From a phage, in the NCBI GenBank assembly GCA_011939005.1, contig GCA_011939005.1_4858.1: a stretch of 64,000 nt of DNA, one strand, 5' to 3'. Shown in pieces: positions 21,593 to 45,957 of the stretch (its first letter is position 1; every line of letters starts with the position of its first letter). The translations under genes and the position numbers were made by a program. The notes below the pieces were generated by a model, which saw nothing but the letters and a program-made list of their open reading frames with translations, did no database searches and was not told the DNA's origin.

Positions 21593-22891
21593 TTAGGTGA
21601 TGTGGAATTTAGGGATGTACTCTTTAACCACGGTTTCACGACCGTGCATCGCACCCATTGCAGTGGTCATAACGTTCGAGAAGCCGGAAGAGATATCCGC
21701 AGCGATTGCCCGTGGCTCTTCTGCTTTGTGTGCAGAGGAGCACGCCGCACAACAGTCTACGTGACCTTGCTGACATAAGATGGGTCGGCGGAGTCGAACA
21801 ACTTTACCAAATTGAGTTTTCAAATACTCTTCGGTGAGTTGGGTAACTTTACCGTTAACCATCGCGTTCATGCCAACATAACGCTTGTAGTTATACTGGT
21901 TAATTACAACTGCATGTGTCAGTTTTGTCCCGCAATCACCAGGTACGATTTTGTGGTTCTGGAAGATCATCTGGATGATACGTACTTGCTCACCACCCTT
22001 AGCGGTTTCTGCACCACGCATGAAGGAACCTTCACGAGTGTCATTGAACTTCTCTACCAGGTACTTCATCCCGGTCTGATCAACTTCCATCAGACTCGTT
22101 GGGATTAAGGTAAAATCTGCACCTTCTTTAAAAGCGGTCTGAATACCATACATCAGCATCAGCTTACGGCGACGCATACGCGCTTTAGGCGAGCTGTAGA
22201 ACTCAACGGACTGGTCGCCACTCAACCACTCTTTATCAAGTTCGTCGAGAGCTTTTTCAATCATAACGATAACCGCAGGGTTATCCAGTTCGTCTTTGTG
22301 CTTCAACAGCAACGCATCACGTACCTTATACGCGTCAGGATGCGTTGTAAGGCTTCTAATTGTTCCTGTTGGGACAATCCCACGACACAACGGAGCAAGC
22401 TCGTGTAGACCCCCTACAAAGCGTCCTATCATGTACGGTCGAATCGCGTCTTCGTTGTCTGGATCGGTGTCATCATATTCCACACAACGCTCATACATCT
22501 CTTTACGGTAGGCTAGTGGGTCACGAGACTCTGCCAGATACGGGAGACGGGTACCGAAAGCGTAATAGATAGCAATCCAGTTAAAGACATAGCGACCCAC
22601 GGTAGTCGGAATGGGACCAGCTAAACCTGGGTACATCTCAGGACGCAATTCAAACTGCTCTTCCGGCACGAACAGCCCTTCATCTTTTTTGCACCCTTCA
22701 ATCGGCACCCATTTAATTTCTTCGTTTTCCCAGTAGTGGGGCAAGCCGTCAATGTAGTTCAGGTCGTATTGCTCAGGTGGCTCACCTTTTTCATTAAAGA
22801 TAGCCACGTTGAAAACCGCAATACGCCACACCAGTCTACGCCAAGCTTCTGCTTTACACGCAGCGACCAGATAATCAATCTTGTTCATCAT
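21593..22891 (-). CDS. hypothetical protein (432 aa)
   Basis: ORF. Confidence 0.5.
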   Translation of the reverse strand: MMNKIDYLVAACKAEAWRRLVWRIAVFNVAIFNEKGEPPEQYDLNYIDGLPHYWENEEIKWVPIEGCKKDEGLFVPEEQFELRPEMYPGLAGPIPTTVGRYVFNWIAIYYAFGTRLPYLAESRDPLAYRKEMYERCVEYDDTDPDNEDAIRPYMIGRFVGGLHELAPLCRGIVPTGTIRSLTTHPDAYKVRDALLLKHKDELDNPAVIVMIEKALDELDKEWLSGDQSVEFYSSPKARMRRRKLMLMYGIQTAFKEGADFTLIPTSLMEVDQTGMKYLVEKFNDTREGSFMRGAETAKGGEQVRIIQMIFQNHKIVPGDCGTKLTHAVVINQYNYKRYVGMNAMVNGKVTQLTEEYLKTQFGKVVRLRRPILCQQGHVDCCAACSSAHKAEEPRAIAADISSGFSNVMTTAMGAMHGRETVVKEYIPKFHIT

Positions 22892-26872: not shown

Positions 26873-27256
26873 TTAACTTGCATCGTGTGGAACAGTCACC
26901 CAATCGTGCCATTTTTCAGAGTAAAGACGATAAGCCATCTTTGGATTCTGATCGACACTACCGGCCGGGTTCTCATTCCACAACACGTACGTATATAACT
27001 CGTACGACGAAATGTTACGGATACTTGACGTGCGGGTGACGTAATACGTCAACCCGCGTTGGTTAAGGAACAGGCCGCTGTAATGTTCAGTGACCATGTA
27101 GTAATGAAACGCCTGGTTGATAGTGGCGTCGGTACAGAGTTTCTTAGCGACGTCTTCTACGCCGGGATACGCCTTTAGAATGTTTTCGAGAAAACTTGCT
27201 AAAGTCATTCCGATGTAGGGTGGCAGCGGCTCTGCTGGACGCGGCGGAGTGAGCAT
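26873..27256 (-). CDS. hypothetical protein (127 aa)
   Basis: AAGGA Shine-Dalgarno before ATG at 27256; overlaps 3' tail of helicase ORF. Confidence 0.45.
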   Translation of the reverse strand: MLTPPRPAEPLPPYIGMTLASFLENILKAYPGVEDVAKKLCTDATINQAFHYYMVTEHYSGLFLNQRGLTYYVTRTSSIRNISSYELYTYVLWNENPAGSVDQNPKMAYRLYSEKWHDWVTVPHDAS

Positions 27257-28847
27257 GTGATTTCCTTACAACGTAGGGGGATGTCGCGATACGGAACGAC
27301 AATACGACATCCTTGAGTGATTTCTGGCGGGCATTCAAGTAATTGCAATGCTTCGGTACGTTATACGCATGGAATAACCACACCGTTGGGTCTATTTCAC
27401 CCCACTCGTTGTGGAGAATCTTACGTGGACGACCAGCCATCTGTTCGTTCAGTTGCTGGTCTTCTACCGGGGTTGAGATGTACATGTGCACCAACCCAGG
27501 TTTATCGACCGCAGTCCCCGCTTTCCCCGGTGTGGAGATAGAGAAGTCTGCTTGGATAAAGTCGTCATACGAATCACCTGCATTATATTTCGACACCATT
27601 AAGGCGTGGAATATAGGGTCACGCGACAACTTATCTTTCACATACTCGGTAAAGAACTCACACATTGCAACGGTTGCAAAGAGTATCAAACATTTCTGAC
27701 CCGGCTGGTACCGCTTAAGAAACGATTTCTCAACCACATCCCAAATCATGTTTGCGTATTCTAAGTGTAAGTTCTCTTTAATCAGTTTCCCTTCGAAGAG
27801 TTTGTGGTTATACGGCGTCATCTTCGACGCCCACCACGCAAACTTCTTATCATCTAAACGGTAGTACAACGCTTTCACGTCGACTACCGGAACGATAGGG
27901 ATACTGATACGGCACTCCATTGGGAAACGCTCCATGTACCGTTCAGCGATAAACGCTTTACTGGAACCAGGAGTTAGCGTTGCAGACATTTCAATACTTG
28001 GTGGCGGGTTAAGCATTACGCCTGCCATGTAGACCAGGTGGAAATGCTCATGTACCTCATCCATTCCCAACAACCCGATACCCAGTACGTCGTAAAACGT
28101 ATCCAAGTCTACAGGGTTTGTTGCGGCTGTGTTAATGTACTCCTTCAGGAAACGCTGTAGCGTCACCGTAGGGAGGATTATCAGCTTAATCCCACGTCTA
28201 TCCAGCTCACCCGATTTACCCATCTCCAGGGCCTCGTAGATGGCCTGCACGCCGGTACAAACCAGCACGCCATCGCGAGATTCCCTTAAGCCCGTCGGGT
28301 CGTCAGTGGTATCGAATATCCACTTCGGAACATAGGTCGGTCGAATGATAAGACCTGTCCTAACGCCCTTCTTAACAACCACTTTCATGAAGCTTTTAGA
28401 TTTCCCGGCTCCGGTCTGGATGGCAAATATCGTCTGCTGTCGACCTGGGGTCATCGCCGCTTCGCTAACTTCGTTCTGATAATAGAAACGTGAGTTAGGA
28501 TCGGTGACCTCGAGATCGAATCCGTAATTATCAAACGTGCACTTATAAGGTTCTGCACGTTCGGGATGGTGCTCTGTCAGCTTGTACTGAAAAGCATATT
28601 CAATTGCTGCCCGTTGGAGGATATGTTTAATCTTCTCAGCGAACACTTTATGGAAAATGAATGTCCTTAAAGACGGAATGTGGGCGTAGTACGCGTCACC
28701 GCGTTCCGTAGTTATTCGTCCATGTTGCTTGCCCATCTTTGGGGCGTGCATATTCTCTTCGGCCCACGCGAGTATGGCCCTTTCAGCCTGGCGGATGGGG
28801 ACTTCAACCCGTACCCCCATACTCGTGTAAGTCATTTGAATTTCTAC
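27144..28847 (-). CDS. SF2 DExH-box helicase
   Basis: Walker A AIQTGAGKSKS, DExH LGMDEVHEH, SAT motif EMSATL, motif VI QMAGRPRK; start moved to ATG at about 28847 because a terminator hairpin lies inside the track's N-terminal extension. Confidence 0.7.
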   Translation of the reverse strand, partial: VEIQMTYTSMGVRVEVPIRQAERAILAWAEENMHAPKMGKQHGRITTERGDAYYAHIPSLRTFIFHKVFAEKIKHILQRAAIEYAFQYKLTEHHPERAEPYKCTFDNYGFDLEVTDPNSRFYYQNEVSEAAMTPGRQQTIFAIQTGAGKSKSFMKVVVKKGVRTGLIIRPTYVPKWIFDTTDDPTGLRESRDGVLVCTGVQAIYEALEMGKSGELDRRGIKLIILPTVTLQRFLKEYINTAATNPVDLDTFYDVLGIGLLGMDEVHEHFHLVYMAGVMLNPPPSIEMSATLTPGSSKAFIAERYMERFPMECRISIPIVPVVDVKALYYRLDDKKFAWWASKMTPYNHKLFEGKLIKENLHLEYANMIWDVVEKSFLKRYQPGQKCLILFATVAMCEFFTEYVKDKLSRDPIFHALMVSKYNAGDSYDDFIQADFSISTPGKAGTAVDKPGLVHMYISTPVEDQQLNEQMAGRPRKILHNEWGEIDPTVWLFHAYNVPKHCNYLNARQKSLKDVVLSFRIATSPYVVRKSHAHSAASSRAAATLHRNDFSKFSRKHSKGVSRRRRRR

Positions 28848-28865
28848 CATGCTGCCCCTCTTCGC

Positions 28866-28893
28866 ACAAAAAAAGAGGGGCGCAAGGCCCCTC
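28866..28893 (-). terminator. intrinsic terminator
   Basis: A7 then GAGGGGC-gcaa-GCCCCTC on plus strand, directly after stop of 28897..31002. Confidence 0.65.
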
Positions 28894-28896: not shown

Positions 28897-31002
28897 TTAC
28901 AACTCAATTACCACAGCGGCTCCTAGGTCATCGTACAACGATGCCGGGATTTTGTACTCGGTATAAAAACCAACGCGATCGATATTCCCCTGCTGTCCTT
29001 CAAACAACAACATCGGAATTGCTGAGCGCAAACTAATGAGCGTGTTGTGATCGACAAACCGTTTCCCGGTGGCATTAGTAGAATCCTCACTGTCAAATCC
29101 TACTGCCGGGAACGGATTGGTTGGCGACTCTACACGAGATATCGCCAACATAATCGCAATATGCGTCATCGGTATACCACTCAGCTTACGCTGGATATAC
29201 TTAAACGTGTCCATCAACGCATAAGTACACTGTTTCTCTGTAGCACCACCCATCTCAACCAACGTCACTGGTTTCACACGACCTTGTTTCTTGTTCAGCT
29301 TCACAGTCGATGCTGTGTTGATGATTTCCACAATGTCTTCGTTCTTATCAGCTGCAATCGAACGGAGCTTGGTTTCTAAGCCGGCTACGAACTCCGCCAT
29401 CGATTCAGAACGGTTGGTGTAGACCAGGACCGGGTGTTTCGGGTTCCATCCTTTCAAAGGAATCTGAACCGTCTTCTTCTCGATACGAATGTTCGCACGT
29501 TGTTTCAAGAAGTAATGCAAGAACGGTTTAGAGAAGTTCCCACAAACACCCATTCGCACATCGATAGAATCCGCAGCGATTATCTGCCCATCTTCTAAAC
29601 GACGTTGGAAAGTTAAGTCGGTGATTTCTGGTAATGCCGTTTCATCAATTGCATCGAGATCTTCATGATACGCAATCTGGCTCAGCTCCGAATAAACTTT
29701 GTCGGTAACAACCAACTCGTATTCTGACCAATTCCCACGCTGTGGTTTTGGCAGCAAGCACAACCCTTTCAGAGAGTTATGTTTGTATTCGGTCATATAC
29801 TCACGCATACGTGGGGTGAGTACCAGGTTGAGCAGATAACGCAAGAAGTCAAGGTGCTTGGTAGAGAGAATTCCCTGTGTACCCTTTTCCGAGATGGACG
29901 TGGATGCCAGATGACCTGGTGACGTACCTTCAGAGAGGTTATAAATCAAATCCCCCATACAGGTCGCACAGATGGACTGATTCGCCATCTCTTTACAGGT
30001 CATGGCACTACGGAAGACCAGCGGTTTGCCAACCAGGTCTGCGTATCCGCCTTTCTCAAATCTCAACCACGGACCATTATCGCCTTCTAAACGATAACGC
30101 ATCCCCACCATCGCTTTATAGGCACGCTCATCCAGCTGCGTATCCTTAAACGTGTAGCGGTGTGCGTGAGTTGTACCGCAGTCGTCGTACGTGAAATACA
30201 TCAGTACGTTTGCTGCCAACTGCAGTTTACGTGAGGCGTATTCTGCTTCGGCAATCTTGTCAGTGTTGTACAAGTGGGAACGTGAAGTTGCACCGGATTC
30301 TTTCAAACGCGAAATAACCGAATGCATTCCGGTAAAGAAGCCTTCCCACACCTGATTGGTGTATACACGTGAGTCAATTTCTGATGTTTTACCACGCACG
30401 AAGGCTTGCAATACCTGGTTCATCTTCACAGTACCGTCCAGTACCGACATCACGACCGGGTTATACCGTAGCGCAGGGTCTTTGAAGATTTTCTCGATAA
30501 GCTTGTACGCTTCTTCAACCATATCCCGACCATCTTCATCGTAGCCAGTAGGATATTGCACTTCCCACTGACGGATGAGTTCGAAGTTCGGATGGTCGTA
30601 GATCTCCATCATCGTATCAAAGTCGATTGTCGTGCAATAGGACAGCAGGTTCTTCACTGTCATGTTGAACGCATCGGCGTAGACATGTTGACTCAGGATA
30701 TAACGCGTTTCAGCAAGGTCGACACCTGCTTTACGGGCCAGTACCGCTGCTTCCGACATAAAGTCCAGATGCAGGTCATCTGTTGCTACCTGACCTGGAC
30801 GATACGCCATGGTCGATGGAGTGGGCACCTGCGGATACAGACGCGACACACCCCAATACGGCCAGCTGAGTTTGATGTGGCGACTAGACATTTCCAACGA
30901 CTTACCATCGTCGAAAGTCACGTAATAACGCCCGCGTAGTTTCCACACCTGATCAGAGTTAAGCATACGCAAATCACGCACGTGTACAGAACGACCCGCC
31001 AT
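28897..31002 (-). CDS. large hypothetical protein (701 aa), possible transcription-complex partner
   Basis: Immediately downstream of and 1-nt overlapped with the RNAP beta-like gene; no catalytic motif recognised. Confidence 0.5.
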   Translation of the reverse strand: MAGRSVHVRDLRMLNSDQVWKLRGRYYVTFDDGKSLEMSSRHIKLSWPYWGVSRLYPQVPTPSTMAYRPGQVATDDLHLDFMSEAAVLARKAGVDLAETRYILSQHVYADAFNMTVKNLLSYCTTIDFDTMMEIYDHPNFELIRQWEVQYPTGYDEDGRDMVEEAYKLIEKIFKDPALRYNPVVMSVLDGTVKMNQVLQAFVRGKTSEIDSRVYTNQVWEGFFTGMHSVISRLKESGATSRSHLYNTDKIAEAEYASRKLQLAANVLMYFTYDDCGTTHAHRYTFKDTQLDERAYKAMVGMRYRLEGDNGPWLRFEKGGYADLVGKPLVFRSAMTCKEMANQSICATCMGDLIYNLSEGTSPGHLASTSISEKGTQGILSTKHLDFLRYLLNLVLTPRMREYMTEYKHNSLKGLCLLPKPQRGNWSEYELVVTDKVYSELSQIAYHEDLDAIDETALPEITDLTFQRRLEDGQIIAADSIDVRMGVCGNFSKPFLHYFLKQRANIRIEKKTVQIPLKGWNPKHPVLVYTNRSESMAEFVAGLETKLRSIAADKNEDIVEIINTASTVKLNKKQGRVKPVTLVEMGGATEKQCTYALMDTFKYIQRKLSGIPMTHIAIMLAISRVESPTNPFPAVGFDSEDSTNATGKRFVDHNTLISLRSAIPMLLFEGQQGNIDRVGFYTEYKIPASLYDDLGAAVVIEL

Positions 31003-33239
31003 TATTTATCCTCCCGAATTGGACGCACTAATTCAAAACCTTCACAGCGATGGATGTTACGTATCATCCTGTCAATCTGCGAATCACCCATTGGTAGTTT
31101 CTTACGATCGACCAGCACCCCTGGATTGGTTGGTGTTGGCGAGTTATACAGCCCCGTTACGATCGCACGGTGTACCGCAGGGTTATTAGCGCGGTCATGA
31201 GTTTCGGGGAAGTTGCCCGGACCAAAGCCGTCGGTAAGACGCTGCTCGGAAGGACCACCCCACTTCAACCCTTTCAGGTTAATCGGATATGAACCACGTC
31301 CTTGGTTGGATGCATCAATACAACCCAAATAGTTCGTGTACATCGACGAGATACTGGAGAACTCACGACCGGTTTTATCCAGGCGCAGAGTCTCTACCAT
31401 GCCGACGTAGAACTGGTTCTTCGTCCACTCTTTCTCACCCTGATAGTTAGTAATCAGTAGCTTAGACTTGCGTGGTGCATACTCGCCTAGAGCACGGCAG
31501 ATTTCTACCTGGGTAGCATTCAATTCGTGGGGAAGCCAGATACGAATCGTGAAGTCGTAAATCTCTTTAAAGAGTTCCAGACGTGACCCAGTATCCGGGT
31601 GACTGGAATTGAGATAGAATGTCCAGCGTGGGTTATAGCGATCGATATAGTCCATCAGGATTTCCCAGGCTTCGTCAACCTGGTTGGCGGCAAGTAATGG
31701 TTTCAACCGCATCTTCAACTGCTCGGATGCAGCAGACCAATACATGTGGAACAGCGCAGCATAAGTCGAACGACGAATTACGGCGTTCATGGAACGAATG
31801 ACATGCACACGTTCTCCGAACTCGTTAATCGGCATTTCTTCATCAGGCCGCACTGCGCCCACGATACCTTTTGTACCTGAACGGTCGGTGATTTTCGATG
31901 AGACGGTAACTGGGATTGGATAACGTACCACGATGCGTATCGTGTAGCTACCAATTGGGTCCCAGAGACCACGCTGAACCGGCTGCGCCAGTTTGTTCAA
32001 CACGTTCTTATCAGCAGAACGGTTATACTCACCTTTACGCATGGCTTCATCGTATTCACGACCAATCTCTTCACGGAAGTCGTTATAGACTTCATACGTC
32101 TCAGAACAGAACGCCTTGTCAAGGATCTCAAACGCTTTCGGTGACCAGACAATGTTCTTGTCTTTGGACATCGCAAAATAGAACCGCACGATATCATTGT
32201 AAAAACGTTTCAAAGCGTTCGCGTAGTGATCTAACTCGCGTTTGTTCTCTTCGGTACATGCGATATTGTTAACACCACGATCGCATTTGGTTTCGTCCCG
32301 CCATACCTGAATATCAACGACACGAGAACCGGTACGTTCCATCTTTTCAAAGTCGCCGGCCTGACGCGCTTTGTAATGCTCAGGGTCAGCGTCAACATAC
32401 TCACAACGGTCGAAGTGCGGAGAGATATGTTGTGTTTCACCTACGTGCGAGTCAATGGCTGCCCATAGCTTATCGAAACGGCGCGCGGCAATAACCAACC
32501 CATCATCACGAATTGCCTGTCCTTTATTGGGCAGGTACTGTGGTCGACGAACGCCATCAATACCCGTTGTCCCATACGTGTCAAGCAGGTACTCGTCGTC
32601 GCGCAAGGTAAAGTCAATTGCACGCAAACCATAAGCGTGCATCGCCTTCGCTGCAGTTTCGGAGATGGTGTACGAGTCCTCGATAATGTCCGGGTGCGAC
32701 ATTGTCACGGTGTGCAGGTTGACCCCATCGACAAACTCACCGTCTTTCTGTGCCGGCAGTACGGTAAGCATTTCATCTTTTTCCAGGTGCTGCGTCTGTC
32801 CGCGCAGCAACGCCTGAAGTTTCCCAGTAGCCTCTTTCTTAGACGAGAAAATGTTATCGTGGTTGGTGTAATACTTAATATCGATTACATCAATCATCAC
32901 TTTGCGCTGGTTGGTTAAATCTGCGCGCTTGAAGAAGATAACATGCTGGAGCGGATCGTGATCCCCTTCACGACCATAGCGTGCAAAAACAGCTGCACGA
33001 GTAACACCTTCTTTGGTTGTGTAACTGCACACAGTACCACTGTCTTCCACGATATCGTTAAAACAATAATCGTGGTAGTTCACATCAGCGCCGGTAAAAT
33101 GGATAGTCGGATCTGGATTGTCCAGTGGTACCGCCGACTTCATATGTCCACCCACCATTGAGGCACGTGCCCCAGATACGCCAGTGATATTCACCTCACG
33201 GTCAGCAACGCTTGACATGAGTTCGACTGGTGTTTTCAT
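31002..33239 (-). CDS. multisubunit RNA polymerase beta-like subunit, C-terminal part
   Basis: SSKITDRSGTKGIVGAVRPDEEMPINEFGERVHVIRSMNAV aligns residue-by-residue with bacterial beta [38 protein letters not shown]. Confidence 0.75.
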   Translation of the reverse strand: MKTPVELMSSVADREVNITGVSGARASMVGGHMKSAVPLDNPDPTIHFTGADVNYHDYCFNDIVEDSGTVCSYTTKEGVTRAAVFARYGREGDHDPLQHVIFFKRADLTNQRKVMIDVIDIKYYTNHDNIFSSKKEATGKLQALLRGQTQHLEKDEMLTVLPAQKDGEFVDGVNLHTVTMSHPDIIEDSYTISETAAKAMHAYGLRAIDFTLRDDEYLLDTYGTTGIDGVRRPQYLPNKGQAIRDDGLVIAARRFDKLWAAIDSHVGETQHISPHFDRCEYVDADPEHYKARQAGDFEKMERTGSRVVDIQVWRDETKCDRGVNNIACTEENKRELDHYANALKRFYNDIVRFYFAMSKDKNIVWSPKAFEILDKAFCSETYEVYNDFREEIGREYDEAMRKGEYNRSADKNVLNKLAQPVQRGLWDPIGSYTIRIVVRYPIPVTVSSKITDRSGTKGIVGAVRPDEEMPINEFGERVHVIRSMNAVIRRSTYAALFHMYWSAASEQLKMRLKPLLAANQVDEAWEILMDYIDRYNPRWTFYLNSSHPDTGSRLELFKEIYDFTIRIWLPHELNATQVEICRALGEYAPRKSKLLITNYQGEKEWTKNQFYVGMVETLRLDKTGREFSSISSMYTNYLGCIDASNQGRGSYPINLKGLKWGGPSEQRLTDGFGPGNFPETHDRANNPAVHRAIVTGLYNSPTPTNPGVLVDRKKLPMGDSQIDRMIRNIHRCEGFELVRPIREDK

Positions 33240-33305: not shown

Positions 33306-33629
33306 ATGCTAGATAAATTTGCTACCTTATCCGAAATAATACCTTCGCCTGATTCGACCAAGTATAAGGTGTTGCATGACTATACAGACTTCCTTCGCAA
33401 ACACCCAGATACTACAGAAGAAGTTGTTGACCCAAAATATGCCTACCCAGAGGTACACAGTTTCTACGCGTACTGTCGTCTCAAACAGTACGATAATAGT
33501 ATTATTTATCCGATGATGTTAATGAACGGAATTTCTACTCCGTTTGATTTCACGCCAGAGATAAGAACCTTATTGGTTCCTAGTGTCGGTGTGGTAAGTA
33601 ACATCTTATCGACTATCGTAGAATCTTGA
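33306..33629 (+). CDS. hypothetical protein (107 aa)
   Basis: Plus-strand ORF with AAGGAG Shine-Dalgarno, bounded by motif and terminator. Confidence 0.55.
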   Translation: MLDKFATLSEIIPSPDSTKYKVLHDYTDFLRKHPDTTEEVVDPKYAYPEVHSFYAYCRLKQYDNSIIYPMMLMNGISTPFDFTPEIRTLLVPSVGVVSNILSTIVES

Positions 33630-33666: not shown

Positions 33667-35034
33667 TTAACGTAAATTAGCTGATGAGAATGGTAGGTTG
33701 CCTAAACTGCTGCTACTTCCGCCACCTAAACCACCCAGACCACCTAACACGTCACTACTCCCTCCTAAGAGGTTGGTGCTACCGCCGCCCAACTGCGTGC
33801 TACCCCCCAAGAGATTATTACTACTTCCCAGCAAACCAGAACCCAGACCACTTTCTTTCGTCACCGCATTACCACGCAGCGCTTCACCGAGAGACAGTTC
33901 TTTAATTGTCCCTTTCGGTAAATGGCCGTTGTTCTCACGCAGCGCTTCCTGAATCTTCGGTGCTAACGCGTTGAAGCTATTAGCTGAAGACGCCTGTTGC
34001 GCTTTCTTCGCACGGAAATAGTTTACCGGATCGTTGAGATCAAGATTTTCCTGCGGAGCTTGTTGAGAAGCTAAAGCAACGACCGGCTTTGTGCCGGCAG
34101 GTGTACGCCCGATACGGAAATCCGTTGCGGTGGTGTCTGTTGCCTGATCGGTGCGTGGGCCGGTATTATACGGCAGAGTTTGGATAACGTTATCATAAAC
34201 GCTCATGTTATCCAGTTGGCCAATCCATTCTTCTTCTAACGGACGCAGTGGAGTGTGGTCACGCAGACCACGAACCACTTGATTGTAGTTGGTCACGTAT
34301 TGTGCCCAACCGCGTGCCAAAGAACCGAAGTACGGACGCGGATCGTTAGAACCCGTAACCGAAGGATACCAACCAAACACTGCAGTGAGCAGGTTAAAGA
34401 TAATGACCTTATCCTGCTTACGCTGGAGCTTGGCACCGAAGAATGTTGCCGTACCATCCAGTGACTCTTCTTCAAACATGTGTTTGTAGTTCGCCACGCG
34501 GATATATTTGATACCTTCAATGGTCATATCGCTGGAGATGAAGATACTGGTGATCTTTGTCTTTTTATCTTCTTCCAGCAAACCGTAAACGTAGTTCTTC
34601 ACTGCGTGCCAGCTCTGAACCAGTTTCTTATCCATCGTCGGATCTTTCAGGTCAGCACAAACCACATCGCTTAAAAACTTCTTGTACGATGCCAGACGGA
34701 TATTTTTTCCTTCGGCTGCTGTTTCCAAAATCGCATCGATTAACTCGAAGCTTTTCAGGAAGAGGTTCGCGCTGATGGCTTTCTTCAGGAAACGAATCGT
34801 TCCAGATTCGCCAGCCAGTACCGATTCACACAGTGGGTGGAACGCATGACATTCACTACCTTCGTCATCTTCCAACCCACGCTTAATCATCGCTGCAGTT
34901 GGAAGCACCAAGCGGCGCTTCACTTTGTTGTAGGTGAACATTGCCGGATGACCATCATCGATGGTCAACATGTCACCTTCGAATCCGTATCCGAGCGAGG
35001 TCAGAAACGAACGGTAGAATTCAATCAATTTCAT
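33667..35034 (-). CDS. hypothetical protein with Gly/Ser/Leu-rich C-terminal tail
   Basis: C-terminus GLGSGLLGSSNNLLGGSTQLGGGSTNLLGGSSDVLGGLGGLGGGSSS. Confidence 0.55.
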   Translation of the reverse strand: MKLIEFYRSFLTSLGYGFEGDMLTIDDGHPAMFTYNKVKRRLVLPTAAMIKRGLEDDEGSECHAFHPLCESVLAGESGTIRFLKKAISANLFLKSFELIDAILETAAEGKNIRLASYKKFLSDVVCADLKDPTMDKKLVQSWHAVKNYVYGLLEEDKKTKITSIFISSDMTIEGIKYIRVANYKHMFEEESLDGTATFFGAKLQRKQDKVIIFNLLTAVFGWYPSVTGSNDPRPYFGSLARGWAQYVTNYNQVVRGLRDHTPLRPLEEEWIGQLDNMSVYDNVIQTLPYNTGPRTDQATDTTATDFRIGRTPAGTKPVVALASQQAPQENLDLNDPVNYFRAKKAQQASSANSFNALAPKIQEALRENNGHLPKGTIKELSLGEALRGNAVTKESGLGSGLLGSSNNLLGGSTQLGGGSTNLLGGSSDVLGGLGGLGGGSSSSLGNLPFSSANLR

Positions 35035-35046: not shown

Positions 35047-36747
35047 TTAATCAATGAGACCGTTGCCGAGTCCGTTTCCGCCTATACCGCCTAAGCCACC
35101 ACCCAGGTCAAGACCTCCAAGAGGATCTAAGCCACCTGTGTTAGTTGGAATGTTAGATAGCATTCGACCCCGGCCTTGGCCTTTCTCGAATTCTGTATAA
35201 CCTTCTTCTACGGCTTTCAACAGCGTTGCGGTGTTCTGTGCCAGCTCACCAACGTATTTGAGATCGGTGGTGTTGCCGGTATGGAGACGGAATTGCATAA
35301 ACGACGCGTAGGTGTAATATTCCAGCGGTTCGTCGTCGACACGGATTTCAATACGAGTAACGGTCCCCAACAATGCGGTGACCAGCATGTGGCAGCGAAT
35401 ATGGTTATGTTTAGTAACCTGAACCATCGCTTCTTTCATGTTCTGCAAGAAACGACGACCTAACGCAGCAGGTAACTGATGGTGCGTGATGCTGCTGACT
35501 GAGTTAGGAATAACTTCCAGCGTAGGCTCTATCATGATATCTGTGTTGCGATTATCAAAGACAAAGCTCACTTCACCAATCAGGTTACGTGACATAATCG
35601 GCCCGATAGACATAGCCAGATCATACGCAACTAGACTACCCTGTGTGGAGAAGCCATTACGTCCAATCCAGTGGTCGGTTTGGTTAACCAGCCCTGCACC
35701 CAACCCACGGCGACTTGCCAGCGCCAGCGATTCACGGATACATTCATCCAACCGCATTGGGTTGACAATCGCATTACGCAAATCAGCCAAACGGAACGTC
35801 GCCTTACTGGTTGCTTTCCAACCGCCAGATACATCAGACATCCCGTTCTGGAGTGCTTGACGCATCGCAGCAATCAGTTCGTGGTTGCTGTAGTTACGGA
35901 TAACACCACGTTGCTTCAATTCAGATTCAACGCCGATGGAGTTATTACCTGCAAAGAAGCTTTCCACGCTACCGAGTTCGGTATCTACCCCAGAACTTGC
36001 CAGATACGCATTACTGATTGCAGATACGTAGTTTTCTGGACGCTGGAGTTGGGATACCATCAACTGTGGTGCAGAGCTACTGGTTGCGGATAGCACAGAG
36101 TCGCTCGTTGGGACGAACTTCTCACCGCTATTCATTTCAATACGTTTTACCATGTCCGCCGCTTTCGCGATCGAAATGATATCTACCGTACTTTCTGTTT
36201 GACCTTCAACAGACAACGCTTTCGATAAAACGTAGTTATCCAGTAGACGGAATGAGTCTGGGTTCAATGTTTTGCCGCCCAGGGCATCGTGTGTATACGT
36301 TGCCTGTAAGCCGTAGATGTCGTTAATGTACAACACCATATCGTCCGGCAGCAAGCTACCCAGGCTGGTTTCTGCCTGACTGGTATAACCGGAGACGATA
36401 TATTGCGTTTCCTGAGTGCGTGTTGCATTCAGAGGTTTGGCAATAAACACCGCCACGAAGTTAAAGATACCGGTATCACGTGATTCCCATTGGAACTGTA
36501 CAGGACGATTGTCATCATCGGACACGTTGATGAATGGACGCTCAAAACCATTCTGGGTGCCATCGAAGCCCACGATGGCAGATAATGCTTCTTGATACTG
36601 CTGTGTTCCCACAGCCTTTTCCCCGCCCAGTTCAACCGCTGCTGCTAAGTCATCCAGTGCACCCGTCGATGCGTTAAAGCCGATGCGGCGACGAACTTGC
36701 TCTGGAACATCGTAGACCGGATACATCAGTAGATTTACAAGCTGCAT
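35047..36747 (-). CDS. hypothetical protein with Gly-rich C-terminal tail
   Basis: C-terminus GGLDPLGGLDLGGGLGGIGGNGLGNGLID; adjacent to similar-tailed gene. Confidence 0.55.
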   Translation of the reverse strand: MQLVNLLMYPVYDVPEQVRRRIGFNASTGALDDLAAAVELGGEKAVGTQQYQEALSAIVGFDGTQNGFERPFINVSDDDNRPVQFQWESRDTGIFNFVAVFIAKPLNATRTQETQYIVSGYTSQAETSLGSLLPDDMVLYINDIYGLQATYTHDALGGKTLNPDSFRLLDNYVLSKALSVEGQTESTVDIISIAKAADMVKRIEMNSGEKFVPTSDSVLSATSSSAPQLMVSQLQRPENYVSAISNAYLASSGVDTELGSVESFFAGNNSIGVESELKQRGVIRNYSNHELIAAMRQALQNGMSDVSGGWKATSKATFRLADLRNAIVNPMRLDECIRESLALASRRGLGAGLVNQTDHWIGRNGFSTQGSLVAYDLAMSIGPIMSRNLIGEVSFVFDNRNTDIMIEPTLEVIPNSVSSITHHQLPAALGRRFLQNMKEAMVQVTKHNHIRCHMLVTALLGTVTRIEIRVDDEPLEYYTYASFMQFRLHTGNTTDLKYVGELAQNTATLLKAVEEGYTEFEKGQGRGRMLSNIPTNTGGLDPLGGLDLGGGLGGIGGNGLGNGLID

Positions 36748-36759: not shown

Positions 36760-38394
36760 TTAAGAATTAAACCATTCAACTTCTTCTAACTTGCGACGTG
36801 CATTCAACACCATAAACTCCGCCAGGCTATTGTGCAGTGACAAGTGAGGTATATAGTTTGGCTGATCCGTCTCACACTTCAGCAGCGCAGCTGCTTCTGG
36901 TGTAGCCCTGAGATGGAACAGATACGGGTTGATGTGATCCTTGTGTAACAAGGTCAGTGATTCCCGTGGTGTAGATTGCGGTTCGAGATTACGCGGGTTG
37001 CGGTACTCCTGAAGATAATATCTATCTAAATCTGCTTTGAGTTCAGATCGAATTGGATCGGCTGCATAACCGGCAGACATCTCAGAACGCACCATATTGC
37101 AACTTAACAGTTGCGCAACGTCATACATTCCATAATTGAGATAAGTTGCCTGCGCCAACGCCATACCGTAGCGAAACGCTTCTGGTCCACATTCAGTATA
37201 CGTCTTATAATGCGCGCTACGATGGAGTGCTAATGCGACTAACCATTCATGCAACGTATAGACAGGACCGTCATGTGTTGCCAGTTGCGAATCAATCAAT
37301 AACTTAACATCTGCTGGAGCGGCATTATCCAGACGCATTGTTTTCAAGAAAGAGCGGTATTCTTTAAATACGTACTCGGTACGGACGTATTCTTTCATCT
37401 GTGCAGGAGAACGTGCCTGCACCAAATCCATGGCGTTTATCTTACCCTTTTCGCCATTGAATACCACACTTTCCGGATGCGCTTTTAACAGCACCGGCTG
37501 GTTAGAGATTTTGTTTGCAAAACCTGTTTCAATCTCTTGTTTAACCAGAAAATACATGCTGGTGACGATATTGTTGTTAACCATGATTTCAATCGGTAAT
37601 TCACCACCGACTTCACGGACAGCCAACAATTTAATAATAGCATACGCCAGGATATAATCTTCCATCATATCCGTGCCATAGCCCCGCACCGTAGCCAATA
37701 CCGACAAACTGGTGCTGTTCGTACCTTTGTTTGCCAGTTCTTTTTCTACCTTTTCCATCACTGTCTGTAGGAACCCACGCAGTTTCGGAATAGCAGGTAA
37801 AGACATGACTTCTGTGTCTTGAAGCATCTCCAGACAGTATGTCAGATTGTACACCATTTTCCGATGTGTTTCGATTGGCAAGTTCTTACCTATCGGGAAC
37901 GTCCCCATGGTGAGGAACACCGGAATATACGGTTTAATCATCAGGACCAGTATCAACAACTCGTAATAGTCCGGACGAATGTACGTCATCGCTTCCGGAT
38001 AATTACTGTTCATTTCATCGTGCGTATCTTCCATGTTCTGCGGAATCCACAGCTTATCGATGGGATACAGCTTACGATACACTTCAGCCTTGTGGAACTT
38101 CGCGATCATCTGCACAATCTTCGGCATGTGCTTACGCTGCGTTTCCGTCGATTCGTTTGCCAGCTCGTCCAGCATCAGATACGCCATGAACAGTTCATCT
38201 TGTTCGTCTGGCGTTAAATAATCCCACACGCGTTGTAATTCCATGAAGAGAATGTTGTCGCGTGCAATCTGTTTACCTTTAACAGTGATGTAGTCGGGTG
38301 CGTTGTTATCCTTCCGATAACGTAAGCCAATAAATGTGACCTCTTGACCATGATGCTCGATTGTCATCCGGTCTTTAATCTTCATAATTTTCAT
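36760..38394 (-). CDS. hypothetical protein (544 aa)
   Basis: ORF; contains an internal copy of the promoter-like 22-mer at 37011-37034. Confidence 0.55.
   Translation of the reverse strand: MKIMKIKDRMTIEHHGQEVTFIGLRYRKDNNAPDYITVKGKQIARDNILFMELQRVWDYLTPDEQDELFMAYLMLDELANESTETQRKHMPKIVQMIAKFHKAEVYRKLYPIDKLWIPQNMEDTHDEMNSNYPEAMTYIRPDYYELLILVLMIKPYIPVFLTMGTFPIGKNLPIETHRKMVYNLTYCLEMLQDTEVMSLPAIPKLRGFLQTVMEKVEKELANKGTNSTSLSVLATVRGYGTDMMEDYILAYAIIKLLAVREVGGELPIEIMVNNNIVTSMYFLVKQEIETGFANKISNQPVLLKAHPESVVFNGEKGKINAMDLVQARSPAQMKEYVRTEYVFKEYRSFLKTMRLDNAAPADVKLLIDSQLATHDGPVYTLHEWLVALALHRSAHYKTYTECGPEAFRYGMALAQATYLNYGMYDVAQLLSCNMVRSEMSAGYAADPIRSELKADLDRYYLQEYRNPRNLEPQSTPRESLTLLHKDHINPYLFHLRATPEAAALLKCETDQPNYIPHLSLHNSLAEFMVLNARRKLEEVEWFNS
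37011..37034. promoter_or_regulatory. intragenic copy of promoter-like motif GAAGATAATATCTATCTAAATCT
   Basis: Near-identical to intergenic copy at 38428-38450; lies in codons DRYYLQEY of 36760..38394. Confidence 0.3.
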
Positions 38395-38529: not shown

Positions 38530-39228
38530 TTAGAGTAATTCGTCGTAAGAATCAGTGGTTGCTGGAGGTGCAGATTGTTGCTGCTGTTGATAACCGCCGC
38601 CGCTACGCTGACCACCACCCTGGCCACCGCCGTATCCGCCACGACCGAAGCTACCACCACCTTGCTGGAATTCACGCGGCTTATATTTCTCTTCCAGGTT
38701 CTGTAAGAACTTCTCGAAGTTAGTGATAAACGCACGTGCGCAGCGCTCAGCAAGTTCTAAATCAGAAACCTGCTGGCCGTCGCGGAAAATACGGAAACCT
38801 TTCGGGTAGGAGAAGTAGAACTTCTTCTGGCGGGCACCAACGCCCTGGATTTCACCGGCAATAGCGATGAACGGTACCAGGTTGTCTTCACGGCCAACAA
38901 TCAGACTAACGGGCGGTTTGTTGCCGTTTTCGTTAGTAAACTTCAGCATACTCTTTTCGCTCTTACGCAGACAATCCTGCAGAGCTTCGATAATGGTACG
39001 ACAAACCGTAATCGGTGCAGAGAAATAGAGACCTTCGCCCTTACCAAAAGAGTAGCTAAACTTCATAGTTTCAACATCACCGTTGAAATCATTCGGTTCA
39101 ATGTTGAGTTTACGCGTACGGTTTTGCTGATCCGGTTCGGTCTGCGGGTAAAGCCATTTGTCTTTGAAAATTTCTTGGTTAATCATCATTTCATCCTTTT
39201 CGGAAAAGCAGTCTAGTGGTTCACACAT
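38530..39228 (-). CDS. single-stranded DNA-binding protein-like
   Basis: Gly/Gln-rich linker GGGSFGRGGYGGGQGGGQRSGGGYQQQQQ and acidic C-terminal tip DSYDELL, the classic SSB tail design; true start may be the ATG at 39189. Confidence 0.45.
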   Translation of the reverse strand: MCEPLDCFSEKDEMMINQEIFKDKWLYPQTEPDQQNRTRKLNIEPNDFNGDVETMKFSYSFGKGEGLYFSAPITVCRTIIEALQDCLRKSEKSMLKFTNENGNKPPVSLIVGREDNLVPFIAIAGEIQGVGARQKKFYFSYPKGFRIFRDGQQVSDLELAERCARAFITNFEKFLQNLEEKYKPREFQQGGGSFGRGGYGGGQGGGQRSGGGYQQQQQSAPPATTDSYDELL

Positions 39229-39254: not shown

Positions 39255-40091
39255 TTACTTCATAAGCCTGCGGAGCAGTTCAATTACAAATGGCTCATTC
39301 ACCAGTTTTAGACAGTTATAAATACGGTCCATTGTGGTATCCTGTTTCCAGCTGTACTTCTCTGCGGTTTTTAACACCACCCCACGCGTTTTGCGATCGA
39401 GGGGTGAAAACATTATCCCGTCGCCAAACAACGTCAGGAACGCTTTGTTAAACGGAATATGTTGGGGTTTCCCGTTAAGTTTGGTGTACCACTCCAGTTG
39501 TGTTTTCACTTTACCGGTGTGCGATTCCAACAAACCCAGTTTAGGGAAATCTTTACGTGCCAGGAGATCAGCTGGCATGTGGGTCAGTAACAGTGTGTCG
39601 CGGCTACCCTCTGGGAAAACATCGAATTGACGGAAGTAATTTTCGTGTTTCTCACCGTACATTTTTAAGGTGTCGTGTTCCAGTGCATTATAGTGCAGCT
39701 GGTTTGGCGTCATCTTATCCTGACCGCCTGCAATGTTTTTGAACGAGGCTTCGGGAAACACTTTGTTAGCGCTACGATAGCTACAAAGGTACGGAACGCA
39801 TAACACCGAAGGGGCTACCGCTCTCGCGGTAGCCGTAAGATTATTAATATCTTCTTCAATCGATGTTAGCATCACGTCGGGTGTTAACCGTTCTCTATTC
39901 TCTTCAAACGCATAGAAGGCGTTACGGAACAATGTCCGGAGATTCAGGTATATTTCCTGATAGGAATGGATAGGCAATTCACCTTTCCAGTCGGCGTATT
40001 CGCCGGTATGCAGCAGACCTTCAAACGCCAGCGAACTGGCGATTGACACTGAATAGAACCCGAAAGTGCGATCAACACTGATTGGATTCAT
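39255..40091 (-). CDS. hypothetical protein (278 aa)
   Basis: ORF. Confidence 0.5.
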   Translation of the reverse strand: MNPISVDRTFGFYSVSIASSLAFEGLLHTGEYADWKGELPIHSYQEIYLNLRTLFRNAFYAFEENRERLTPDVMLTSIEEDINNLTATARAVAPSVLCVPYLCSYRSANKVFPEASFKNIAGGQDKMTPNQLHYNALEHDTLKMYGEKHENYFRQFDVFPEGSRDTLLLTHMPADLLARKDFPKLGLLESHTGKVKTQLEWYTKLNGKPQHIPFNKAFLTLFGDGIMFSPLDRKTRGVVLKTAEKYSWKQDTTMDRIYNCLKLVNEPFVIELLRRLMK

Positions 40092-42957: not shown

Positions 42958-43230
42958 TTAGCCCATCACCGCTTCCAACGGAATGCCTTCTTCATCATCC
43001 TCATCTGCTTCAATAAGGAACTGGTTCTGCATACTGATTAGCTCGTTATGTAAAACCATGCCGTGTTCTACGCGGTCCACATCAGTAGAAGACATAAAGC
43101 CGTTATCTGGACGGAATTGGAGCGCCAACTTCATCTCAGTTTCATCGACTGGTAAACGTACCTGGAACTGGTCGCCATCAAAATCCTGTTTGTCCACTCC
43201 AATCCTTTTGGAGCAGGTGTGTAGTAACAC
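42958..43230 (-). CDS. RNA polymerase beta-prime-like subunit, 3' exon (carries catalytic DFDGDQ motif)
   Basis: LLHTCSKRIGVDKQDFDGDQFQV matches beta-prime [21 protein letters not shown]; open frame begins right after in-frame TAG TGA. Confidence 0.65.
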   Translation of the reverse strand: MLLHTCSKRIGVDKQDFDGDQFQVRLPVDETEMKLALQFRPDNGFMSSTDVDRVEHGMVLHNELISMQNQFLIEADEDDEEGIPLEAVMG

Positions 43231-44589
43231 CCTCCCTAACTTTCACTAGGGCACAGACCATACCTTAGCCATGAGCTTTCGCTTTTAGGCTCCTCCCCAC
43301 TTCGGTGCTATTCTAAGCACCTACGAGCATTTCAGCTCCGGTCGTTGAACGTTCCTCTTACGAGGCTTCGCTGCTGATTACCCATTGTTAAAACCCTTAG
43401 CAGTATTGTTTAGCATAGGTCATCTCATTACTTGTTTCCGACTTTCGTCTCCACATGGGCAAATGAGCTTTAGGGGTTCCCAGCAATTCAGGGAGATACA
43501 CATCAGAGGTTTCCCGTCTGATGGGGCAAGGCTATTCTGCTGTTAAATATTGAACTTCAAATTGTTTGTACTTTCCGGTTTGTGAGACTGCTTTGGCCAC
43601 AGTGTTTCTTTTCACACCAATCGCGTTTGAAAACTCTTGTAAAGAATTCCAAATGGTTTTGATGTTAGTGGTCGTATCAGTCACACGCACCATCGACGGT
43701 ACACGTTTTGGCATTTGTGATTGTGGTCTGGGTTTGCGGAGATCGATCATGTCAGTTATGGCAACATCGATATCCACCATGTACCACGCCTCATATCCAA
43801 ACTTAGTCAAATCGACGGAACCGCCGTTGAGATGGGAATAGATGAGGTGTGGTTTTATACCCACGTATTCGGCTGCTGCCGGTACAGACGAGAACAGGAA
43901 ATATGGTTCCTTACCAACTTTTCTGATGACCAGTCCTTTATTACCTGGTCCTGAGTTCTTACCAATAGAATTCTTGGTGAGAATCCAGTCGTCTTCCGGT
44001 ACCTTGACTTCAAACACATCATTTAGCGTGTATTGACGATTAAGCCCACGTGCGATCGAGCTTGAAACCAAGTGCCGATTAACGCCGATATACTCAGCCG
44101 CCTTAGTCATGCTACGGAACTGAACTATATCGCCGGTCTCGAGATTTCTGACATCGACAATAATGTTGTCAGTTCTTAGACCAGTATCGAAAGCATGATT
44201 AACATTTTCCTTTCGATAACACCACTCAAGGTTTACCACAGATGGATTACTCTTAACACCATCACGATGGTTAACCTCGTCACCACATTTATCCAGGAAC
44301 ACAGTCGCAACAATTCGATGTAAATGGGTTTCGCCTTTACAACCGCGCACTCCCAGGTATCCACTTTTGAGAATGAAGACTGGTAGCGGCGTGACCATAC
44401 CTTTTACTTTACAGTCGCCCAATGCATCAACAAAGAGATCACGATAGACTGGGTGTCTGTAATACCCCTTAAAAACATACGAGGGCTCTAAATCATCGCG
44501 TAGTTTCCTACTCAACTTTTCAATAATCACAATTTATTCCCTATTACCAGTCACCGACTAAGAATAAGGAATAGCAGAATAACACTTTT
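43231..44589 (-). mobile_element. putative group I intron (phage IA-like) carrying an HNH homing endonuclease ORF; boundaries approximate
   Basis: Splits a beta-prime-like coding sequence; ~300 nt non-coding RNA after the endonuclease ORF contains GUUCAACGACC (R-like) and UAUGGUCUGUGC (S-like) elements whose GACC/GGUC can pair as P7; candidate 5' exon ends in U and intron ends in G. Confidence 0.55.
43532..44530 (-). CDS. HNH homing endonuclease with NUMOD/IENR-type DNA-binding repeats
   Basis: HLHRIVA...VNHRDGVKSNPSVVNLEWCYRKENVNHA is an HNH motif; three helix-turn-helix-like repeats AAEYIGVNRHLV, AAEYVGIKPHLI, FSNAIGVKRNTV. Confidence 0.8.
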   Translation of the reverse strand: MIIEKLSRKLRDDLEPSYVFKGYYRHPVYRDLFVDALGDCKVKGMVTPLPVFILKSGYLGVRGCKGETHLHRIVATVFLDKCGDEVNHRDGVKSNPSVVNLEWCYRKENVNHAFDTGLRTDNIIVDVRNLETGDIVQFRSMTKAAEYIGVNRHLVSSSIARGLNRQYTLNDVFEVKVPEDDWILTKNSIGKNSGPGNKGLVIRKVGKEPYFLFSSVPAAAEYVGIKPHLIYSHLNGGSVDLTKFGYEAWYMVDIDVAITDMIDLRKPRPQSQMPKRVPSMVRVTDTTTNIKTIWNSLQEFSNAIGVKRNTVAKAVSQTGKYKQFEVQYLTAE

Positions 44590-45957
44590 ACCGTTAGCCA
44601 TCTTGATCACACGGTCAGAGATACGCAGCGAACACTGGTTAACATCGGTAACAACTTCGTCGATGAACAGCGTCTGAATAGACAACTGTACCAGCGTTGG
44701 GTTACGTAGCGGTATGACCATGATCCCAAGACCGCCTGGGGATTCACGAATCAGTTCTTTAAAGATTTCGTCTACAAGCGGGTCATACTGCATTGCCGCT
44801 TTTGCGACGATACGTTCACACTGCCGTGACGAATAACCGCGTCGTAGCAGTTTGTTCTCGATGTGGGTCGACATCAACCCAACCATCCAACGCCATGGTG
44901 CTTTTAACTTCCAGGCATCGTGTGGTTCTGAGATAGGTGAGATGGTTGCACGACCACCGAACGGGATGTGGGTAGAACCCAATTTCGCACGATAGTCACC
45001 CGGTTTACCTTCCATAGACTCACGACGGAAGTCCATGTGGAAGTACGTTAGCTGACGGTTCGCCTTCAAAGCACGACTAATCAGAAAACGTGGTTCGATC
45101 GCTTTACGCCGCGTATAGAGCAACGCGATATTTTTCACCGCGTCAATAGCACCCGTGAACACTGGGTCTACCATGACACCACGACGACCTTCCTCAGTAA
45201 CGATAAGTTTAGAGGAGATTAGCGGTAAGTGTCTTGGGAAGAATGCATGGCGTTGCGTTTCGAATAGCTCCTTCCATTGTAAACGTAAGCGTTCACCTTC
45301 AGCGGCGTTATGCCGATTAGGTGCGAAGATTTCCTTCCAGGCTTCTGGCGTGGTAAGGATGTTAAAGATACTAACGTGGTTATCAACCAGATTGCGCAAG
45401 CCACGAACGAAACCATGTTCTTCCAATACACGTTTCACAGCATGTGCGCGTTTACCGTCTGGTTCTTCTATACGGTAATACGGGTCAATCATCCACATCA
45501 TCAAGTCATTACCGCGTTCGATAGTGACCTTGTTACGTTCAAACTTCTTCAACTTGCTATTAAAGAAAGCATTGAACATTGCCCAGAATCGTGGGTTGAC
45601 GAAGTTACCCATTTCATCGGGTGCACGTAACCAGACATCGGATTCAATTCGATGTTCAGTTACAACATAGCCACACGTCGGACACTTACAACCGAGATTG
45701 TAACGATGCGCGATCGGTGCCGGACAATCCAAACTACAAATCGGTGCAGAGTTCAGTTCTTCGTCAACGATTCTGTTCTGTACCATGCGATCGATAAGTT
45801 CAGCAACCTCGATCGCATCCCCGTTAACGGCGACATCGTTAATAATAGTGGGTGGTTTAATACCTTTGGCAGCAGCTTCTATTTGCAAATCGGACAAATA
45901 GTTATCCTGACTAACCAACCGGCCGGATATTCCGTAGAATTTTGGTACCTTTCTCAC
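44551..45957 (-). CDS. RNA polymerase beta-prime-like subunit, N-terminal part (5' exon; ORF reads on into the intron to the stop at 44551)
   Basis: Zinc-ribbon-like CSLDCPAPIAHRYNLGCKCPTCGYVVT and RNPTLVQLSIQTL resembling beta-prime RxPTLHRLGIQAF. Confidence 0.7.
   Translation of the reverse strand: MRKVPKFYGISGRLVSQDNYLSDLQIEAAAKGIKPPTIINDVAVNGDAIEVAELIDRMVQNRIVDEELNSAPICSLDCPAPIAHRYNLGCKCPTCGYVVTEHRIESDVWLRAPDEMGNFVNPRFWAMFNAFFNSKLKKFERNKVTIERGNDLMMWMIDPYYRIEEPDGKRAHAVKRVLEEHGFVRGLRNLVDNHVSIFNILTTPEAWKEIFAPNRHNAAEGERLRLQWKELFETQRHAFFPRHLPLISSKLIVTEEGRRGVMVDPVFTGAIDAVKNIALLYTRRKAIEPRFLISRALKANRQLTYFHMDFRRESMEGKPGDYRAKLGSTHIPFGGRATISPISEPHDAWKLKAPWRWMVGLMSTHIENKLLRRGYSSRQCERIVAKAAMQYDPLVDEIFKELIRESPGGLGIMVIPLRNPTLVQLSIQTLFIDEVVTDVNQCSLRISDRVIKMANGKSVILLFLILSR

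Follow-up and report, generated by a model that had tools for sequence, protein, structure and literature searches.

Split β and β′ subunit genes of a predicted phiKZ-type RNA polymerase in a SPN3US-type jumbo phage

Gene content and organisation of the locus

The window, meaning the whole 64,000-nucleotide stretch of phage DNA that was analysed, carries at 28897-33239 two adjacent ORFs of 745 and 701 codons (Table 1). Both exist with exactly the limits given in an initial annotation of this DNA, lie on the minus strand and contain no internal stops. By its sequence, the window is that of a Seoulvirus (SPN3US-type), a nucleus-forming jumbo phage, and nucleotide identity across 28897-33239 is 98.6-99.0% to SPN3US and EC001 (Escherichia phage vB_EcoM_EC001). 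Essentially identical genes are found in SPN3US (gp34/gp35), EC001, Proteus phage 7 and the SPFM phages. Neighbouring genes and overlaps in the SPN3US-type relatives match those of the window, with no substantive difference inside the two-gene region.

Table 1. Features of the RNA polymerase locus and associated genes (window coordinates).
Feature	Position	Strand	Remarks
vRNAP piece, gp42 homologue	21593-22891		
Terminator-like hairpin GAGGGGCcttgcGCCCCTC, then T7	28875..28893	-	Best minus-strand site in scan
Predicted nvRNAP β′ C-terminal subunit, 701 aa	28897..31002	-	SPN3US gp35; homologue of phiKZ gp74
Stop/start overlap TAATG, β C and β′ C genes	31000..31004	-	Read from sequence
Predicted nvRNAP β C-terminal subunit, 745 aa	31002..33239	-	SPN3US gp34; homologue of phiKZ gp71-73
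107-aa ORF, SPN3US gp33, phrog_3455	33306-33629	Opposite to neighbours	Between gp70-like gene and β C
PicA/Imp1 family gene (predicted)	35047..36747		
Sigma-like fifth nvRNAP subunit (predicted), 544 aa	36760..38394	-	phiKZ gp68 homologue; SPN3US gp30
nvRNAP β′ N-terminal gene, intron-split (predicted)	42961..45957	-	SPN3US gp23 / phiKZ gp55 homologue
β′ N exon 2	42961-43185	-	Starts DFDGDQ
Probable group I intron with HNH ORF	43186-44589	-	In β′ N
HNH endonuclease ORF inside intron	43532-44530		phrog_59, 3.4e-29
β′ N exon 1	44590-45957	-	Ends ...KMANG

The two genes share a TAATG stop/start overlap with a GGGAGGA Shine-Dalgarno sequence shortly upstream, and this arrangement indicates that their translation is coupled. 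A terminator scan found no site between them, and on these features the two ORFs are coupled. The hairpin listed in Table 1 begins 3 nt past the stop codon of the 701-aa ORF and is likely to form the 3′ end of the transcription unit. As a class, terminator-like sites show no enrichment in the region (10 vs 13.0 ± 3.8 in shuffles), and neither do sigma-70-type promoter matches (25 vs 20.5 ± 5.3); no promoter was assigned because these phages use their own polymerases.

The surrounding gene order is collinear with that of phiKZ from gp65 (SbcD) to gp75 (helicase), with 10 of 10 positions corresponding. BLASTP recovers the correspondences to gp66 (7e-32), gp70 (8e-13) and gp75 (2e-30), and the counterparts of gp67, gp68 and gp69 are linked through common PHROG families. 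No significant BLASTP match joins the 566-aa ORF to gp69 (best E 2.3) or the 232-aa ORF to gp67 (E 1.1), and the probable kinship of these two pairs rests on PHROG families and gene position. Sequence searches of the PDB returned no match for the 566-aa ORF or the vRNAP gp42 homologue, and the 455-aa ORF drew only NrdR matches at chance level (E 0.1 or higher). The 617-aa ORF, which occupies the chimallin position, likewise had no PDB match, so no identity with chimallin is claimed for it beyond that position.

Two of the neighbours had been put forward as candidate β or β′ domains, and neither is one. The product of 35047..36747 falls by sequence into the PicA/Imp1 family, whose members import proteins into the phage nucleus, and is no RNAP piece. 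That of 36760..38394 is predicted to be the sigma-like subunit: residues 47-435 of the query match PDB 7OGP_B (E 1.3e-6), it shares phrog_3209 with phiKZ gp68 (1.1e-159 and 5e-183), and its gene holds the gp68 position in the gene order. The SPN3US annotation starts this gene at the equivalent of window position 38367. Every jumbo phage genome with genes for β/β′-like subunits also has a homologue of phiKZ gp68.

A β′ N-terminal gene split by a probable group I intron

The β′ N-terminal subunit is predicted from a third locus in the window, whose product matches phrog_2987 (E 4.1e-155) and PDB 7OGP_A (E 8e-33). A probable group I intron of 1.4 kb interrupts this gene at the DFDGD catalytic motif, and exon 2 opens with the codons of this Mg-binding motif. 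Rfam RF00028 matches the minus strand at 43234-43562 with 47 bits (E 2.4e-10), just below the cut-off of 50, and a homologous, ORF-less copy of the intron in EC001 reaches 69.4 bits (Rfam group I). The intron boundaries are ...GGT/ and ...CAG/, and the exons rejoin exactly in frame when set against the uninterrupted SPN3US gp23, giving a predicted spliced junction (44590/43185) of ...AACGGT/GATTTTGAT. An intact, active β′ N subunit is thus predicted to need splicing.

Occupancy of the site varies among relatives. It is empty in SPN3US, which lacks the HNH-containing intron of the present genome; it holds the ORF-less intron in EC001, and the intron together with the HNH endonuclease in this window, Proteus phage 7, SaP7 and SPFM1. 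The occurrence of three site states among nearly identical Seoulvirus strains suggests that the intron splitting NG/DFDGD may be mobile at present, in which case an active nvRNAP would need self-splicing, conceivably as a timing or regulatory step; this reading is put forward tentatively. A literature search found no description of the β′ N intron polymorphism, which offers a small, tidy example of the homing-endonuclease cycle at work in a phage gene that is essential.

Identity of the 745-aa and 701-aa proteins

Several family-profile and PDB sequence matches identify the 745-aa protein with β. It matches phrog_3295 across its full length (E 2.9e-268), the phiKZ nvRNAP chain 7OGP_C (E 1.8e-29) and AR9 7S00_C (E 1.6e-8) in the PDB. 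As anticipated in the initial annotation, the match to cellular β is confined to its C-terminal part: Pfam Rpb2_6 is matched at positions 207-284 of 373, with 24.4 bits (cut-off 23.4), and cyanobacterial β (8GZG_C) at residues 801-926 of 1104 (E 0.006). The first block of the β motif, K449-I-T-D-R453-S-G-T-K457-G458, is present as described and encoded at 31866-31895, while the second, encoded at 31830-31847, reads P465-D-E-E-M-P470 and not P-x-E-D-MP. The phiKZ counterparts of K449 and K457 in the alignment are K386 and K394.

The 701-aa protein had been described as an unassigned partner without a recognisable motif, a description that does not hold. The protein matches phrog_3015 over its full length (E 1.1e-240), and residues 8-548 align with phiKZ gp74 (PDB 7OGP_D) at E 8.9e-39. 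It has a bridge-helix region (EYASRKLQL) and a trigger loop, GTQGILSTKHLD, with the motif GTQGILSTKH. In an alignment of 16 homologues with identity down to 21%, C275, C336, C345 and C348 are invariant and coincide in position with the zinc site of phiKZ; within the LSTKHLD block, L379, S380, K382, H383 and D385 are invariant, and T381 and L384 nearly so. Profile comparison of this ORF with RNAP, the check that had been suggested, matched β′ from phage and bacteria alike: the family profile spans phiKZ gp74 end to end and matches AR9 β′ C (7S00_D) at E 1.8e-20, E. coli β′ (residues 719-937) at 2e-8 and C. difficile β′ at 3e-12, with some 60 bacterial β′ chains matched from bridge helix to trigger loop. 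Pfam Rpb1_5 gives a weak match of 17 bits (cut-off 28.5; E 0.004), and a lenient Pfam scan of all RNAP pieces (E up to 10) added no Rpb1/Rpb2 domains. The protein is, on this evidence, a divergent β′ homologue below the threshold for Rpb1_5 membership.

The two ORFs are accordingly read here as the β C and β′ C subunits of the nvRNAP of a SPN3US-type phage, with a probability of about 0.95. Homology and conserved residues support this identity, as do gene order, the intactness of the ORFs and purifying selection; the profile and sequence hits against solved structures were decisive. Together the ORFs differ from SPN3US at 62 nucleotides and at only 4 amino acids (three in the 745-aa protein against gp34, one in the 701-aa protein, which is 100% identical to that of EC001); both genes are intact, and by this ratio they are under purifying selection. 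The earlier proposal of a phage multisubunit RNAP with a phiKZ-type split β was right.

It is very improbable that the two ORFs instead encode subunits of the virion-packaged vRNAP, which transcribes early genes. Both enzymes are made of split β/β′ paralogues, residues 270-359 of the 701-aa protein weakly match the vRNAP family phrog_2962 (E 1.7e-6), and the gp42 homologue lies only 6 kb away. However, the top family and structure matches are all nvRNAP chains with far stronger scores, and the genes fall within the block corresponding to the phiKZ gp68-gp74 nvRNAP genes. The SPN3US vRNAP consists of gp42, gp218, gp240, gp241 and gp244, whereas gp35 is named as nvRNAP (PMC5105663), and the literature on SPN3US implies virion mass spectrometry without gp34 and gp35.

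Two options were first offered for the 701-aa ORF; that of a divergent RNAP piece stands and that of a phage-specific factor falls, given the profile matches and invariant residues. An accessory protein that is merely co-transcribed and not catalytic would fit the subthreshold Rpb1_5 score and the ~150 C-terminal residues left unaligned to gp74 in a single-sequence search, but the profile covers the whole of gp74, the AR9 and bacterial β′ matches are independent, the cysteines of the zinc site and the residues of the trigger loop are (nearly) invariant, and gp74 is an integral β′-like subunit in the phiKZ cryo-EM structure; this reading is effectively refuted. Decay of both genes as pseudogenes of a disused RNAP, to which the interruption of the companion β′ N gene inside its catalytic motif might point, is refuted for the 745-aa and 701-aa ORFs, which span their family profiles in full, with amino-acid changes at just 4 of the 62 differences from SPN3US, and the interruption, rather than a frameshift or deletion, is a probable group I intron that is complete and canonically bounded. 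Neighbouring ORFs proved to be related to RNAP, and the β-like ORF is no pseudogene.

That phiKZ-like phages encode split multisubunit RNAPs has been established knowledge since the 2000s. In SPN3US-type genomes the counterparts of both ORFs are already annotated as β and β′, and SPN3US gp35 has been named nvRNAP β′ and gp77 nvRNAP β N (Thomas et al. 2016, PMC5105663). Both RNAP genes are therefore known from the previous assignment of gp34 and gp35, and nothing novel is left in the two ORFs. The finding is real but ordinary, with little discovery value; its useful outcome is a corrected annotation comprising β′ C, the sigma-like fifth subunit and the PicA/Imp1-family importer.

The predicted enzyme and its relation to known polymerases

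By homology with phiKZ, the enzyme would be a complex of five polypeptides (β C, β′ C, β′ N, β N and the sigma-like fifth subunit) and would contain neither alpha nor omega, both of which are absent from the phiKZ enzyme. Judged from the phiKZ structure, β C would contribute one double-psi β-barrel with two lysines contacting DNA and RNA, β′ C the bridge helix, trigger loop and zinc site, and β′ N the Mg-binding DFDGD motif. The β N gene (SPN3US gp77, phiKZ gp123) lies outside the 64-kb window and maps in SPN3US ~11.5 kb past the window's left edge. Once assembled, the nvRNAP would transcribe middle and late phage genes and would not need the host polymerase. Absence from the virion, synthesis after infection, middle/late transcription and rifampicin resistance are established only for phiKZ and AR9, and a literature search found no experimental work on an nvRNAP of the SPN3US type. 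Its assembly, subunit composition, promoter use and specificity, timing and rifampicin resistance are transferred here from those phages, to which it is only about 25% identical, and should be read as predictions.

Homologous catalytic modules link the two proteins to bacterial RNAP: the 745-aa ORF carries Rpb2_6 of β (rpoB), and the 701-aa ORF the segment of β′ (rpoC) that runs from bridge helix to trigger loop. Unlike bacterial β and β′, each phage subunit is split into two polypeptides from separate loci, and the sequences are highly divergent; cyanobacterial β′ is also naturally split. The nvRNAP of the Bacillus phage AR9 (PDB 7S00/7S01) likewise combines split β/β′ with a fifth, sigma-like subunit, gp226, which is its promoter-specificity subunit. 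Both window ORFs reach it in sequence searches, though at a much greater distance. The genome of AR9 contains uracil; the polymerase recognises promoters on the template strand, and purification of its core does not require the fifth subunit.

The closest characterised system is the phiKZ nvRNAP (gp55, gp68, gp71-73, gp74 and gp123; PDB 7OGP/7OGR), which has been purified, biochemically characterised and solved by cryo-EM. The window shares with it the split architecture and local gene order and retains its fifth subunit, its catalytic lysines and zinc cysteines, and the bridge helix and trigger loop; the RNAP proteins are only about 25% identical. Two differences concern the locus itself. In the phiKZ record the β C gene is broken into gp71/72/73, whereas that of the window is continuous, and the 107-aa ORF on the opposite strand has no phiKZ counterpart between gp70 and β C.

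Beta and beta-prime C-terminal subunits

Two adjacent ORFs of 745 and 701 aa, located just where the initial annotation placed them, encode the C-terminal parts of the beta and beta-prime subunits (beta C and beta-prime C) of a non-virion multisubunit RNA polymerase (nvRNAP). This is a real finding, yet a re-discovery of genes already annotated and published: SPN3US lists them as gp34 ("beta subunit 2") and gp35 ("beta' subunit"), and gp35 has been described as the nvRNAP beta-prime subunit bearing the C-terminal conserved regions (Thomas et al. 2016; PMC5105663), so the 701-aa partner is not unassigned, contrary to the initial annotation. The locus (28897-33239) is 99.0% identical in nucleotide sequence to Escherichia phage vB_EcoM_EC001 and 98.6% to Salmonella phage SPN3US (genus Seoulvirus), with at least 80% of it covered in 31 phage records; the 701-aa protein shares 100% identity with its EC001 counterpart and has homologues in 271 phage records. 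The genes share the overlap TAATG, preceded by the ribosome-binding site GGGAGGA, and a GC-rich hairpin followed by seven T residues begins 3 nt past the beta-prime C stop codon, probably marking the end of their transcription unit. Across both ORFs, 62 nucleotide differences from SPN3US in 4343 nt produce only 4 amino-acid changes; judged by this pattern, both genes are clearly under purifying selection and therefore are not pseudogenes.

Features of the polymerase region (E-values and scores as indicated)
Feature	Coordinates	Strand	Counterpart and evidence
gp42 homologue	21593-22891	-	SPN3US gp42; phrog_2962, E 2.7e-175
Helicase ORF	27144-28850	-	phiKZ gp75; BLASTP 2e-30
Hairpin and T7	28893-28875	-
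701-aa ORF (beta-prime C)	28897-31002	-	phiKZ gp74; 7OGP_D 8.9e-39; ATG start, no internal stop
745-aa ORF (beta C)	31002-33239	-	phiKZ gp71-73; 7OGP_C 1.8e-29; ATG start, no internal stop
107-aa ORF	33306-33629	+	SPN3US gp33; phrog_3455, E 2.8e-35
455-aa ORF	33667-35034	-	phiKZ gp70; BLASTP 8e-13
566-aa ORF	35047-36747	-	phiKZ gp69; same phrog_3141, 6.6e-157 and 2.7e-179
544-aa ORF	36760-38394	-	phiKZ gp68; 7OGP_B 1.3e-6; same phrog_3209
232-aa ORF	38530-39228	-	phiKZ gp67 (Imp6); same phrog_3284
278-aa ORF	39255-40091	-	phiKZ gp66; BLASTP 7e-32
SbcD-like ORF	40088-41239	-	phiKZ gp65; phrog_100
Beta-prime N gene (intron-split)	42961-45957	-	SPN3US gp23/phiKZ gp55; 7OGP_A 8e-33
Beta-prime N exon 2	43185-42961	-	begins DFDGDQ
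Intron	43186-44589	-	1404 nt
Group I intron core	43234-43562		Rfam RF00028, 47 bits, E 2.4e-10
HNH endonuclease ORF	43532-44530		within intron
Beta-prime N exon 1	45957-44590	-	ends ...KMANG
617-aa ORF	46040-47893	-	phrog_8316
DNA polymerase gene	50488-52767	-	phrog_2927

The full length of the 745-aa ORF matches phrog_3295 (E 2.9e-268); further matches are to chain C of the phiKZ nvRNAP structure 7OGP and to chain C of the AR9 nvRNAP (E 1.6e-8). Pfam Rpb2_6 scores 24.4 bits, just above its curated cut-off of 23.4, at profile positions 207-284 of 373, and the sole cellular beta match spans residues 801-926 of a 1104-residue cyanobacterial beta; the ORF therefore represents the C-terminal part of beta alone, in agreement with the initial annotation. 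Of the beta motif proposed there (R-x-G-x-KG ... P-x-E-D-MP), the first element is present in KITDRSGTKG (residues 449-458; 31866-31895), whereas the second reads PDEEMP (residues 465-470; 31830-31847). K449 and K457 align with K386 and K394, the two lysines of the phiKZ beta double-psi beta-barrel (PMC8287921).

The 701-aa protein, thought to lack any recognisable motif and to be possibly a divergent RNAP piece, proved to be such a piece and to carry several motifs. It matches phrog_3015 (E 1.1e-240) and, over residues 8-548, phiKZ gp74 (residues 8-547); Pfam Rpb1_5 matches weakly, below threshold (E 0.004). When 16 homologues with identities as low as 21% are aligned, C275, C336, C345 and C348 are invariant; they correspond to C288, C341, C350 and C353, the zinc ligands of phiKZ. 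EYASRKLQL (254-262) lies within the bridge-helix region, and GTQGILSTKHLD (374-385) is the counterpart of the trigger-loop GTQLTMRTFH of bacterial beta-prime; in its LSTKHLD block five residues (L379, S380, K382, H383, D385) show no variation and the other two (T381, L384) almost none. The profile built from this alignment, which includes gp74 and so matches it by construction, independently matches AR9 beta-prime C (1.8e-20) and approximately 60 bacterial beta-prime sequences (e.g. C. difficile, 3e-12; E. coli residues 719-937, 2e-8).

Predicted intron in the beta-prime N gene

A predicted group I intron (boundaries ...GGT| and ...CAG|) with an HNH endonuclease ORF interrupts the beta-prime N gene exactly at its catalytic G|DFDGD motif; the intron core scores just below the RF00028 cut-off of 50 bits. 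In EC001 exactly the same position holds a homologous intron without an ORF (69.4 bits), whereas SPN3US gp23 has none there. Besides this phage, the HNH-bearing form is common only to Proteus phage 7, SaP7 and SPFM1.

Proposed polymerase and neighbouring genes

Beta C, beta-prime C, beta-prime N, beta N (SPN3US gp77, mapping outside the window) and a gp68-like subunit would form a polymerase of five polypeptides that lacks alpha and omega and would transcribe middle and late genes and act as the transcribing enzyme inside the phage nucleus. Its catalytic residues and gene order are conserved here; assembly, promoter specificity and timing we infer from homology with phiKZ and AR9.

The gp42 homologue is a beta-prime fragment of the virion-packaged RNAP, so that parts of both phage enzymes are encoded in the window. 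This homologue is paralogous to the central part of the 701-aa protein, as weak reciprocal PHROG matches show; a PDB sequence search with it returned no match. The 617-aa ORF lies between the DNA polymerase and beta-prime N genes, a slot occupied in phiKZ-like phages by the nuclear-shell protein chimallin (gp54); as it has no PDB sequence match at E <= 1e-3, its identification as chimallin is positional only.

Gene order relative to phiKZ

The minus-strand gene order matches phiKZ gp65-gp75. Neither of the two upstream ORFs suspected of encoding beta or beta-prime domains does so, though one encodes another RNAP subunit. By sequence match to 7OGP_B and shared family, 36760-38394 is the homologue of gp68, the sigma-like fifth nvRNAP subunit required in phiKZ for assembly and promoter binding; its longest ORF starts at 38394 (544 aa), and the SPN3US annotated start is equivalent to 38367 (535 aa). 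By family membership, 35047-36747 is no RNAP domain and belongs with PicA/Imp1 (gp69), the selective protein importer of the phiKZ nucleus, which gp67 (Imp6) binds. Pairwise BLASTP of the 566-aa ORF against gp69 and of the 232-aa ORF against gp67 was not significant. These two ORFs flank the sigma-like subunit gene, as in phiKZ.

The 107-aa ORF lies between the gp70-like and beta C genes and diverges from beta C, the two starts being 66 nt apart; no phiKZ gene occupies the corresponding place. The phiKZ record (7276-10596 of the locus compared) also annotates beta C in pieces (gp71, gp72, gp73 and small ORFs), whereas here it is one 745-aa ORF.
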